Assembly (NCBI GenBank): GCA_002868945.1
Contig: PKTX01000058.1
Location: 64,773 to 128,772 of the forward strand
DNA: 64,000 nt
Direction of reading: 5' to 3'
Source: Desulfobulbaceae bacterium
GTDB lineage: Bacteria > Desulfobacterota > Desulfobulbia > Desulfobulbales > SURF-16
The notes below the pieces were generated by a model. The model was not told the DNA's origin. It ran no database searches and saw only the letters and a list, made by a program, of their open reading frames with translations. The translations under genes and the position numbers were made by a program. Below are positions 47,030-49,209 of this stretch, piece after piece (the stretch's first letter is position 1; each line of letters begins with the position of its first letter).

Positions 47030-47181
47030 AAGGTTCAAGGTGCAAGGTGCAAGGTTCAAGATGCAAGATGCAAGGGCATGTACGCCGGCACGACTGCTTT
47101 TTAAGCTTTCATTCTGACCTCTGACTCCTGACTCCTGAATCCTGACTCCTGACTCCTGACTCCTGACTCCTGAATCCTGAA
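47030..47181. repeat. Bipartite heptad-array element: 7 CAAGG-type units, about 33-nt core, 10 TCCTGAC-type units
   Basis: AAGGTTC AAGGTGC AAGGTGC AAGGTTC AAGATGC AAGATGC AAGGGCA | TGTACGCCGGCACGACTGCTTTTTAAGCTTTCA | TTCTGAC CTCTGAC TCCTGAC TCCTGAA TCCTGAC x4 TCCTGAA x2. Confidence 0.9.
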
Positions 47182-47206
47182 TTAAGCACGTTGTGCCTTG
47201 TGGCAT

Positions 47207-47776
47207 TTAAGACTGCACGGCGCGCTCGCAGATCGTGCTGATTATATCGAGGCATTTTCTGGCGTTGGCATCCATGTTGGGCTGGGCCAGCAGCCAGTCC
47301 TGGGCCTCGCCGTGGATGGCTCTGACGGCGCGTTCCAGCTCCTCGACACGCTGTTGGTTTTTCGTGGCCCCCACCTTGCCCAGGGGATGCTTTTTGTCGG
47401 TTTCGTTGATGCGGACAATGAGCTGGTTGAGCAGGGCCTTGATGATGGGCAGGGTGTCGTCCAGGGCGCTGTGCAGGGTCTTTTCATCCATGAGCAGCAA
47501 TTCGCAGAATTCGGCTGCCTCGGCCGAGGCGGAGCGCGGCTCCCCGGTGATGATGGCCATTTCACCCAGGATCTGGCCGGGTACCATGTGGGCCACAAAG
47601 ACCTTACGGCCATCCACCTCTTTATAAATGGCAACCTTGCCGCTGCGGATCAGATAGGCGTGGCGGCCGCCCTGTCCCTCCTTGAAAATGGCTTGTCCCT
47701 TGTTGAATTCCAGAAGTCGAAACCCCTGTTTTTGTTCTGTGCTCTTCTTCTGTTGTGCCATGGCCTGGTTGCTCAA
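47207..47776 (-). CDS. Cyclic-nucleotide-binding domain protein (no recognisable HTH)
   Basis: FKEGQGG..AYLIRSGKV and GEMAIITGEPRSASAEA (phosphate-binding cassette). The start is TTG at 47776 or ATG at 47761. Confidence 0.8.
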   Translation of the reverse strand: MSNQAMAQQKKSTEQKQGFRLLEFNKGQAIFKEGQGGRHAYLIRSGKVAIYKEVDGRKVFVAHMVPGQILGEMAIITGEPRSASAEAAEFCELLLMDEKTLHSALDDTLPIIKALLNQLIVRINETDKKHPLGKVGATKNQQRVEELERAVRAIHGEAQDWLLAQPNMDANARKCLDIISTICERAVQS

Positions 47777-47856
47777 AAGGGATGTGGTGGTTGCAATGTG
47801 ACTGCTTGACGGATCTCGTCGTTTTCCGGGGGCGCATCGCTGTTATCCTATATCAC

Positions 47857-49080
47857 CTACAGGTTTTTGCCAAGTTCCAGTGACTGTTTGTTAATAACCA
47901 CCTTTATCTCTTCCTGGCAGAGTTCATAACCGTTATCAAAGAAAGGCAGAAAAACAAGATGATTGCGGCGAATGGCGACGGAGATGTCCGGCAGCTTGGG
48001 CATGATATTGCGCTTGGCAATCGCGGCGGTCGCCAGGATGAGTTTGACACTTTCGCCCGCCTCTGCTGCCGGCAGGGAGACGGCAACCGACTCCGCCGGT
48101 ATGTGGCACTCCCCTGAGCCGGGCAGCTGGCCGCTGGTGAGTTGGGCGGCGATCCGCAAAAAGATCTGCGGCCGTATTTTAAAGGCCGGGCAATAAAAGG
48201 CCATTCTTCTCTTCTCCCACTCCGGTTGGATGGCCCGGGGGATGTTGGTAAGGCGGATAAAGTCGGCCAGCGACTGGATGGCAATGCCGCCAAAGTCCAC
48301 CTCCAGACGCCAGAAGGGCAGATGAACGGCATCGTCGCCCTTGGCAGGCACCGTCTCATACTCCACGCCGGTCAGGCGATCACCGGTCTGTTGCCAGGCC
48401 GTATCGCAGTTGGCGCAGAGCAGGACGACGCTCTCCTGCCGGCAACGCAGGTCCCAGCCGCAGTGGGGACAGATGGCGGGCAGCAGGTTCAGTTGCCAGG
48501 CGCCGCCCTGCAGGCCGGCATCATTAAAAATATCCCTGCCTTCCGGCATGGTGGCCAGCGGCGCACCGGTGACACCGTCATAGACCCTGTTGCCGTTTGT
48601 AAAGAGGGGCATGTAGATGAGGCTCACCGATTCGCCGATCCACTCCTGGAGCAAAGGCCGGCGGTCTGTGCTTGTGGTCCGGTGAAGAGCTGCGGCCCTG
48701 GCGATCGCCTCTGTCTTGGAGATGCTGCCTTTCAGACAGGTGGCGGCAAGCTCTTTTGCGGCATAGTGCATCTTCATGGCCTGGGGACGGTAGCCCAGGG
48801 TGGCGGGCAGGACGGTGAGGGGCAGGGCCTTCAATGTCGTATCAACGATGCGATGCTCCACCCCCTGCAGGTGGCAGGAGAAGATCGAGCCCTTGCAGCG
48901 CAGGTAGGGGACGTGCAGCAGGCGGCCGGGCCCATTGACATGGGGCAGGGTGAAACGGGGCGTGTCGCAGGCCAGAATGTGGCGTACTCCGCAGAAGGGG
49001 CAGTTGAGCACCCGGTCTGTTTCGGCCAGCTCCACTTCACCGCCGCATTGCGGGCATTGCTGGAGAACCCTCAGTTGCAT
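47857..49080 (-). CDS. Hypothetical protein with two zinc-ribbon motifs
   Basis: CPQCGG..x..CPFCG at the N-terminus and CPHCGW..x..CANCD mid-protein. 407 aa, ATG start. Confidence 0.6.
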   Translation of the reverse strand: MQLRVLQQCPQCGGEVELAETDRVLNCPFCGVRHILACDTPRFTLPHVNGPGRLLHVPYLRCKGSIFSCHLQGVEHRIVDTTLKALPLTVLPATLGYRPQAMKMHYAAKELAATCLKGSISKTEAIARAAALHRTTSTDRRPLLQEWIGESVSLIYMPLFTNGNRVYDGVTGAPLATMPEGRDIFNDAGLQGGAWQLNLLPAICPHCGWDLRCRQESVVLLCANCDTAWQQTGDRLTGVEYETVPAKGDDAVHLPFWRLEVDFGGIAIQSLADFIRLTNIPRAIQPEWEKRRMAFYCPAFKIRPQIFLRIAAQLTSGQLPGSGECHIPAESVAVSLPAAEAGESVKLILATAAIAKRNIMPKLPDISVAIRRNHLVFLPFFDNGYELCQEEIKVVINKQSLELGKNL

Positions 49081-49103
49081 GGCATTTTTCCTGGTAATTC
49101 CAT

Positions 49104-49209
49104 ATTCAGGATTCAGAATTCAGGATTCAGCAATCAGGAGTCGGAAGAAAAGTTTGAAAAGCAGCCGTTCCGACGTACATGCCCTTACCCCTTACCCCTT
49201 GAACCTTAA
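49104..49209. repeat. Bipartite heptad-array element, inverted copy of the 47030 element
   Basis: The reverse complement reads AAGGTTC AAGGGGT AAGGGGT AAGGGCATGTACGTCGGAACGGCTGCTTTTCAAACTTTTCTTCCGAC TCCTGAT TGCTGAA TCCTGAA TTCTGAA TCCTGAA. The core is about 27/31 identical to the copy at 47072. Confidence 0.85.

Follow-up and report, generated by a model that had tools for sequence, protein, structure and literature searches.

What do two facing copies of a heptanucleotide repeat mean for the pair of genes that lies between them? The question is raised by a 64,000-nt stretch of the genome of a Desulfobulbaceae bacterium (contig PKTX01000058.1, positions 64,773 to 128,772; hereafter the window, and everything counted inside the window refers to these 64 kb of this genome), in which two inverted elements built of tandem heptads stand on either side of genes for a zinc-ribbon protein (ZR) and a cyclic nucleotide monophosphate (cNMP)-binding protein. 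We consider it probable, if far from certain, that the elements are young, lineage-specific composite repeats of a class defined by the heptad MTYCTGA, that they have grown in place with occasional copying, and that they supply transcribed, structure-free, stop-rich sequence with probable side effects on coupling or termination.

The two elements share one architecture and lie at 47029-47182 on the plus strand (element 1) and at 49104-49209 on the minus strand (element 2). In both, a purine-rich array, (YAAGGNN)n, is followed by a 30-nt core, a T-rich leader and a pyrimidine-rich array, (MTYCTGA)n. Written out, the layout is GGTTCAAGG-(NNYAAGG)n, 30-nt core, T-rich leader (TGCTTTTYAARCTTTY), (MTYCTGA)n. 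The parts are as follows.

47029-47075, plus strand: element 1, purine-rich 5' array of about 6.6 YAAGGNN heptads, starting with TAAGGTTCAAGG (heptads TAAGGTT, CAAGGTG, CAAGGTG, CAAGGTT, CAAGATG, CAAGATG, CAAGG)
47072-47101, plus strand: element 1, core AAGGGCATGTACGCCGGCACGACTGCTTTT, a weak hairpin and then a T-run
47095-47118, plus strand: element 1, leader TGCTTTTTAAGCTTTCATTCTGAC, which bridges the core and the pyrimidine-rich array
47113-47182, plus strand: element 1, pyrimidine-rich 3' array of 10 MTYCTGA-type heptads (TCTGACC ... TCCTGAA)
49182-49209, minus strand: element 2, purine-rich 5' array of 4 heptads (TAAGGTT, CAAGGGG, TAAGGGG, TAAGGGC)
49157-49186, minus strand: element 2, core AAGGGCATGTACGTCGGAACGGCTGCTTTT
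49140-49163, minus strand: element 2, leader TGCTTTTCAAACTTTTCTTCCGAC
49104-49145, minus strand: element 2, pyrimidine-rich 3' array of 6 heptads, 23 nt upstream of the ATG of the ZR gene

The original prediction, made from the DNA letters, had recognised this shared bipartite architecture, which is borne out here. The cores are identical at 27 of 30 positions and end in T-runs (TTTTT and TTTT), and a degenerate core pattern, AAGGGCATGTACGYCGGMACGRCTGCTTTT, matches the window at elements 1 and 2 only, with no match in 100 shuffles. Aligned as an inverted repeat, the elements are 79% identical over 102 nt (47051-47152 against 49106-49207), and the longest exact run shared by these arms is about 14 nt. 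Heptad numbers differ between the copies, as had also been predicted (about 6.6 + 10 against 4 + 6). The arrays are found by Tandem Repeats Finder (TRF), which reports super-periods of 14 and 21 nt within them, and by a separate period-7 scan. The window contains nine period-7 arrays and at most one array for each other period from 4 to 12; shuffles contain none.

The pyrimidine-rich arrays carry more C (0.26-0.37) than G (0.14-0.17) and place TGA in all three sense frames, and their antisense strand is stop-free. The purine-rich arrays are G-rich and nearly stop-free on both strands. An open reading frame (ORF) of 81 codons on the minus strand (46961-47206) spans all of element 1 since neither of its arrays has a stop on the antisense strand, and arrays of this kind can yield spurious ORF or gene calls. 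The arrays also break short-read assemblies; a JGI contig of the same organism (L001) terminates inside the 15-copy array near 42.7 kb.

Elements 1 and 2 are not alone, and related arrays are found at four further sites in the window.

42452-42749, plus strand: bipartite site with about 2.5 copies of (AAGGGTG), about 170 nt of other sequence, the same leader at 42628-42651 and (TTCTGAC)15, ending 44 nt 5' of the ATG of an abhydrolase gene
45441-45485, minus strand: half-site with leader TTTTCAAGCTTTT and (TTCTGAA)3, with partial core homology (GCCGG...GACTG)
57463-57523, plus strand: purine-rich array of about nine heptads (CAAGGGG/CAAGGTG), with the opening GGTTCAAGGTGCAAGG as in element 1
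31807-31937, plus strand: small bipartite site with three CAAGGCA and two TAAGGGG, a spacer of about 70 nt and a weak CTTCACT TCTCACT CCTGAC array, downstream of a convergent MORN-repeat gene

All six array sites are intergenic. The 24-nt leader, TGCTTTTTAAGCTTTYNTTCTGAC, stands 5' of three CTGA-type arrays, where no such occurrence is expected, and a looser fourth copy is present at 45473-45485. The purine-rich arrays at 47033 and 57463 have a common opening, GGTTCAAGG(TGCAAGG), with GGCTTCAAGG in this place at 31803. At the four sites that have them, MTYCTGA-type heptads number 10, 6, 15 and 3. Every bipartite site in the window, that is, four heptad sites and a pair of 8-mer arrays at 34874-34941, has its purine-rich part first and its pyrimidine-rich part second. 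This 8-mer pair consists of the inverted tandem repeats (CACAAAGG)3 and (CTTTGTGC)3, which form a hairpin of about 24 bp between convergent genes for a HAD hydrolase and a DivIC/FtsB protein, and it recalls the octanucleotide 'class 1/2' paired sites of Geobacter metallireducens.

Whether such arrays are old features of these genes can be judged from relatives, which we took as syntenic contigs reached via ZR homologues. The sister lineage (L123) is 92.6% identical to the window in nucleotide sequence over 20 kb, and three outgroups (L125, L127 and L128) are 73-76% identical. The genes for an SPFH/Band-7 protein (SPFH), ZR and the cNMP-binding protein and the threonine synthase gene thrC have the same order and orientation in all five relatives, with the operon convergent with thrC. 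No period-7 array was found in the 12-21 kb of syntenic DNA of L123 and the three outgroups, against eight in the corresponding stretch of the window. The arrays are evidently young, having been gained in this lineage.

The same comparison reveals what the two composite elements displaced or joined. The three outgroups have 9-12 nt between SPFH and ZR, the window has 140 nt and L123 has 296 nt. This bears out the earlier claim that the copy at 49104 interrupts an operon; judged from these spacings, element 2 is evidently an insertion into an ancestrally tight operon junction. In L123 this junction is filled by an unrelated palindromic element, a copy of which also occurs at 15172-15367 of the window. 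That element, of about 195 bp and resembling a miniature inverted-repeat transposable element (MITE; ctaggagcctgtcggacttaga ... tctaagtccgacaggctcctag), is 89% identical to the L123 copy at 9733-9931, and the same junction has therefore been struck independently by two different small elements. Other small dispersed repeats (window 42520-42600 and 26720-26914; L123 765-844 and 956-1126; one with GGAGTCTCGC) are common to the window and L123 and lie at differing intergenic sites in the two. In this clade, small intergenic elements turn over rapidly. Element 1, as placed by synteny, evidently sits at the spot of a strong bidirectional terminator of the relatives: the thrC/cNMP spacer of the three outgroups holds AAAGGGGG..CCCCCTTTG, which folds at -24 to -27 kcal/mol (z -5 to -7.6), whereas the cores of elements 1 and 2 reach no more than -6.9 and -7.6 kcal/mol (z +0.5 and -0.9). 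In a relative of 66% identity, the cNMP-binding gene is a C-terminal remnant beside an intact thrC terminator (L125 11225-11575; L126 1955-2305).

Breakpoints of the BLAST alignment between the window and L123 fall at every array-bearing segment, and the half-site at 45441-45485 lies within a 225-nt segment (45367-45591) that is missing from L123. The sister lineage carries seeds or remnants of two arrays. At the orthologous thrC/cNMP site it has two MTYCTGA heptads against ten in the window, and its sole TYCTGANTYCTGA mini-array in 21 kb (TTCTGATTCCTGA) lies at the site orthologous to the array of element 1, in the same orientation. At the FBA/HD site it has one CAAGGGG (GCAAGGGGG) against nine heptads in the window (57463-57523). 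The arrays therefore change length in place, in keeping with the predicted behaviour as variable-number tandem repeats. The leader common to four sites indicates that the module has also been copied, and the core-leader-array unit has evidently reached new intergenic positions in this way.

Based on these observations, we propose how the elements may act. Their arrays would grow by slipped-strand mispairing, and the elements would be transcribed as 3'-untranslated or intercistronic RNA. There, TGA in all frames could release read-through ribosomes, a structure-free pyrimidine-rich stretch could uncouple the translation of ZR from that of SPFH, and the pyrimidine-rich array might be bound by Rho or by proteins that each cover 7 nt of single strand, such as cold-shock-domain proteins and S1. 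RNA from the array regions is predicted to be less structured than chance (z +1.5, +1.1 and +2.0 against shuffles). A cold-shock domain binds exactly seven nucleotides with a T2-C3-T4 preference (PMC1904285), and this preference corresponds to TYCT of MTYCTGA. The arrays of element 2 and of the site near 42.7 kb stand 23 and 44 nt before an ATG, and those of element 1 and of the site near 45.4 kb face gene 3' ends. The lack of structure, the richness in stops and the cold-shock footprint support, and do not prove, an effect at the level of the transcript. The 92.6%-identical sister lineage does without the elements, which are therefore probably no essential regulatory device; they would be tolerated or selfish sequence that affects expression as a side effect. 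The operon thus provides a natural experiment, with elements present here, another insert in L123 and a junction of 9-12 nt in the outgroups; this with-and-without comparison makes the effect of an element on operon expression directly measurable.

Several more specific functions were considered and set aside. A structured RNA or riboswitch was rejected, since whole elements, cores and the regions from array to start codon fold no better than shuffles, and at gathering thresholds Rfam returned only a tRNA in the window. A strong terminator in the elements was likewise rejected, given the weak folds of the cores and a promoter/terminator scan that called no site within element 1 or 2. Sequestration of the Shine-Dalgarno sequence before ZR, by pairing of UCCUG with CAGGA, was discarded on a fold no better than shuffles. 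The two arrays of one element showed no complementarity to each other. At the breakpoints against L123, L125, L127 and L128 we found no target-site duplication, only a CCTGA microhomology at element 2.

The genes around the elements account for the inverted arrangement.

45613-46992, plus strand: threonine synthase, thrC (Pfam), convergent with the SPFH operon, with element 1 in its 3' flank
47207-47761, minus strand: cNMP-binding-domain protein (Pfam), last gene of the SPFH operon
47857-49080, minus strand: ZR, 407 aa, conserved, with two zinc ribbons and no Pfam family
49221-50345, minus strand: SPFH/Band-7 protein with a double zinc ribbon (Pfam), first gene of the operon

Element 1 is downstream of thrC and on the same strand as that gene; element 2 has the same relation to SPFH. 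Each copy is co-oriented with its upstream gene, and the two are therefore inverted relative to each other because the transcription units converge. The meaning that the original prediction had seen in the inverted arrangement accordingly finds no support, and the idea that the pair brackets a functional unit fares no better: the enclosed genes are in place in all five relatives and the elements were added later, so that the genes are ancestral residents and not cargo. PADLOC and NCBIfam searches with the three operon proteins returned matches to the cNMP-binding domain only and no link to defence or mobile elements. ZR itself has two Cys4 zinc ribbons (C8..C30 and C204/C207/C222/C225); its AlphaFold model is confident, with a predicted local distance difference test (pLDDT) score of 88.8 and a predicted template modelling (pTM) score of 0.87, and a Foldseek search of the PDB with this model gave no match (best E = 0.28). 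The SPFH-ZR(-cNMP) order is kept in the five Desulfobulbaceae-related contigs examined, and ZR homologues are also present in Ca. Electrothrix and Syntrophobacter. Farther along the window, some 1.5 kb past a tRNA-Leu(taa) gene, the G+C content drops from about 0.58 to 0.31-0.37 (60943-61030, 62500-64000). This low-G+C segment near the window end is probably a horizontally acquired island, and an independent contig of the same organism (L129) stops at about 61913.

The heptad is not confined to this lineage. A scan for four tandem MTYCTGA heptads, with one genome per species, found at least 120 loci in more than ten phyla, including Cyanobacteria, Acidobacteriota, Verrucomicrobiota, Planctomycetota, Bacteroidota, Nitrospirota, Thermodesulfobacteriota and Bacillota; the genome of the window was not among the matches listed. 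Polarity was counted over neighbouring heptad arrays 10-300 nt apart, and this count and the others in this paragraph are among the matches listed. Pairs that run from a purine-rich to a pyrimidine-rich array outnumber the reverse by 43 to 5 (binomial p = 1.4e-8). In the self-complementary form, TCAG-type arrays precede CTGA-type arrays in 14 pairs and follow them in none, and non-complementary purine-rich arrays precede CTGA-type arrays in 15 cases against one, with both strands counted. As locations of the arrays, convergent intergenic regions outnumber divergent ones by about two to one. Crude tests of gene orientation gave no consistent sense or antisense orientation, and there is only a marginal tendency for a hairpin or T-run just 5' of MTYCTGA arrays. 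The window elements conform to the purine-to-pyrimidine polarity, a rule of which we found no description in the literature searched.

Neutral slippage alone does not explain the polarity of paired arrays, and chiefly because of this rule the heptad class is not to be dismissed as junk. It is conceivable, though unlikely, that the window elements are a local form of a cross-phylum module of fixed polarity on both strands, not yet described as such, in which a purine array, a spacer and a pyrimidine array (often MTYCTGA) follow one another. If so, the module could be a cis-acting device read heptad by heptad by a ubiquitous single-strand-binding protein, in operon punctuation or translational uncoupling. 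It could also be the trace of a dedicated process, for example in break repair, by which facing 3' ends acquire purine-rich heptads. Any future explanation must accommodate the polarity rule across phyla.

This breadth is one of several points that weigh against our proposal of young repeats with side effects. One heptad in more than ten phyla with a 43:5 polarity among the matches listed is hard to square with purely neutral slippage, and the combination hints that a function is under selection or that a dedicated mechanism exists. Three assemblies of the organism (the window, L001 and L129) are 99.99% identical with no gaps, in one orientation and with equal array lengths, so the length polymorphism that the original prediction had suggested looking for is not seen among these consensus sequences, which possibly derive from overlapping data, and ongoing slippage is not directly visible. 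The case for copying of the whole composite is built on four copies, of which two are partial, and a metagenome scan with the core gave one unrelated chance match inside a coding gene. In the 64 kb, no terminal inverted repeats, target-site duplication or transposase accounts for the insertion of element 2. Finally, each functional step in the proposal is one that we infer.

Other explanations must be weighed against the same evidence. The elements could be a selected RNA-level module, with one protein per heptad (a cold-shock-domain protein, an S1-like protein or Rho) setting termination or antitermination, mRNA stability or downstream translation. Such a module would suit the structure-free arrays, the seven-nucleotide, T-C-T-preferring site of the cold-shock domain, which matches TYCT of MTYCTGA (PMC1904285), and the two of four CTGA arrays that end 23-44 nt 5' of a same-strand start codon, as it would the Geobacter array I301B, which ends right at a Shine-Dalgarno sequence (PMC2700814). 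The heptad conserved across phyla with strict pair polarity and the roughly twofold excess of convergent over divergent placement, both among the matches listed, point the same way. We nevertheless regard selection for this purpose as doubtful: the arrays are missing at the same genes in the 92.6%-identical sister and all other relatives, two of the four point at the end of a converging gene or run antisense to both neighbours, and the crude cross-phylum test found no consistent sense orientation among the matches listed. The general purine-to-pyrimidine polarity would also be accounted for if the elements were decayed bidirectional terminators, with the purine array derived from the A/G-rich left arm, the pyrimidine array from the T/C-rich right flank and the core as a remnant of the hairpin. 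Element 1 lies exactly at the terminator site of L125, L127 and L128, the left arm in L127 (GAAGGGGGTGCAAC) resembles the GGTGCAA heptad, the core ends in TTTT(T), the 8-mer version (34874-34941), which lies between convergent genes, makes a true hairpin of 24 bp, and a weak excess of structure and T is seen just 5' of arrays across phyla, among the matches listed. We give this origin a modest chance at most, since the core hairpin is no better than shuffles and is not called by the terminator scan, element 2 is inside an operon that previously had no terminator, most cyanobacterial pairs among the matches listed have no spacer hairpin, and the alignment to the ancestral arm is weak.

A non-autonomous mobile element, resembling a MITE or a REPIN, with heptad arrays as its ends and a transposase encoded elsewhere, is decidedly unlikely in our judgement. 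Element 2 is an insertion, the leader recurs at four sites, the 45367-45591 segment is a 225-nt insertion with hairpin-like ends around its array, and intergenic regions of the clade are rich in other small repeats; yet there is no complementarity between the arrays and no fold in the element, neither element 1 nor element 2 has a target-site duplication, the core was not found beyond these two elements in the window or the metagenome scan, and single-copy seeds at orthologous sites of the sister argue for growth in place. Double-stranded DNA sites for a nucleoid protein or global regulator (IHF/HU-like), as was proposed for class 3 sites of Geobacter (PMC2700814), would fit the geometry in one respect, three heptads making 21 bp or two helical turns, as do the 21- and 14-nt super-periods from TRF. 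A 7-bp period, however, puts successive sites on differing faces of the helix; strand polarity and stop content are irrelevant to double-stranded DNA and yet strongly non-random, and the arrays are missing in close relatives with the same genes. We think such sites very unlikely. Lastly, the original prediction had suggested recombination between the inverted copies, by which the enclosed gene pair would be inverted or excised. Two inverted homologous segments 1.95 kb apart lend themselves to this idea, which has nevertheless become extremely improbable. Identity between the arms is only 79%, nowhere unbroken for more than about 14 nt, and no recombinase gene adjoins the elements (the neighbours are thrC and the genes for the cNMP-binding protein, ZR and SPFH). 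A single orientation is found in three assemblies and five relatives, four of which are without the repeats, and with six array sites, chance alone would give an inverted pair of neighbours in half of all cases.

How do the window elements compare with repeats already known? Tandem arrays of heptanucleotides rank with the most frequent long simple repeats of bacteria and have been noticed repeatedly, in cyanobacteria, in giant sulfur bacteria and in Geobacter. Those of cyanobacteria are reportedly represented by the short tandemly repeated repetitive (STRR) sequences of Mazel in 1990. The arrays here resemble STRR and long simple sequence repeats (SSRs) in being non-coding, dispersed, lineage-specific heptads, which in the accounts summarised for those repeats are attributed to polymerase slippage, and the sequences of STRR1-3 are other than those here. 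We know of no description of a purine-array/core/pyrimidine-array organisation, or of its polarity, for STRR or long SSRs. In some genomes tandem heptanucleotides are the dominant class of long SSR, according to the work of Mrazek (2007) as summarised in PMC4679880.

A second likeness is to the TAACTGA direct repeats of marine Beggiatoaceae, cyanobacteria and Bacteroidetes (MacGregor, 2015; PMC4679880). Those arrays mostly have 2-6 copies, are unpaired and often stand just 5' of start codons, and post-transcriptional binding by S1, Csp or CsrA has been proposed for them (PMC4679880). Both groups are intergenic CTGA heptads with stops in the sense frames, predicted unstructured RNA and a patchy distribution across phyla. 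The heptads of the window are TCCTGAC, TTCTGAC and TYCTGAA, and share with TAACTGA only CTGA; neither a second array type nor a common core, both present here, has been described for TAACTGA arrays. Repetitive extragenic palindromic sequences (REPs) and their composite forms (BIME, REPIN) in enterobacteria and pseudomonads are similar in another sense, as short, lineage-specific non-coding sequences whose presence in 3' flanks and between cistrons is tolerated, and their side effects on mRNA stability or termination offer an analogy for the elements here. REPs are imperfect folding palindromes moved by RAYT transposases (PMC3116915), unlike the window elements, which do not fold and are built of tandem heptads. 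REP/BIME/REPIN is the best functional comparison, but the elements here do not belong to that family.

The heptad itself leads to Geobacter. In G. metallireducens, Gmet_I301-I308 have been annotated as 'class 3 predicted global regulator binding sites' (Aklujkar et al., 2009; PMC2700814), eight pairs in all, each array with about five tandem MTYCTGA heptads and the two arrays of a pair on opposite strands 70-110 bp apart (PMC2700814, Fig. S5). They lie between consecutive genes, including within the operons proB/proA, moaA/mosC and cbiG/cobQ (PMC2700814, Table S4), and are not in G. sulfurreducens; binding by a global regulator is a hypothesis of that work (PMC2700814), of which we found no functional follow-up in the literature searched. 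The original prediction's statement that no repeat class with this structure is described holds in part. It does not hold for the MTYCTGA arrays and their junction, which are known from Geobacter (PMC2700814), with the related TAACTGA arrays (PMC4679880); it stands for the combination of YAAGGNN array and this core, of which the literature searched gave no description. A search with the exact heptads returned nothing bacterial in that literature.

The correspondence with Geobacter class 3 extends to several features. The heptad consensus, MTYCTGA, is the same. The T/C-rich junction of Gmet_I306B (GTCTTTCATTCTGACTGCTGACTCCTGAC) is nearly identical to that of element 1 (AGCTTTCATTCTGACCTCTGACTCCTGAC), and a junction ..CTTTC or ..TTTTC stands directly 5' of the first heptad both here and in Gmet_I301A, I302A, I306B and I308A. 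In both cases the arrays are intergenic, also inside operons, and absent from a sister species or lineage. The differences concern what is built around the heptad. In Geobacter the partner array repeats this heptad on the other strand and faces outward. Here the partner is YAAGGNN on the same strand, and the closest MTYCTGA array on the other strand lies 1.9 kb off, facing inward; a conserved 30-nt core flanked by arrays, and copy numbers that reach 10-15, occur here, unlike in class 3. By heptad and junction, the window arrays belong to the Geobacter class 3 heptad class, and through it the elements are best read as members of a widespread class of intergenic heptanucleotide arrays. A Desulfobulbaceae repeat is tied in this way to the Geobacter sites by both heptad and junction.

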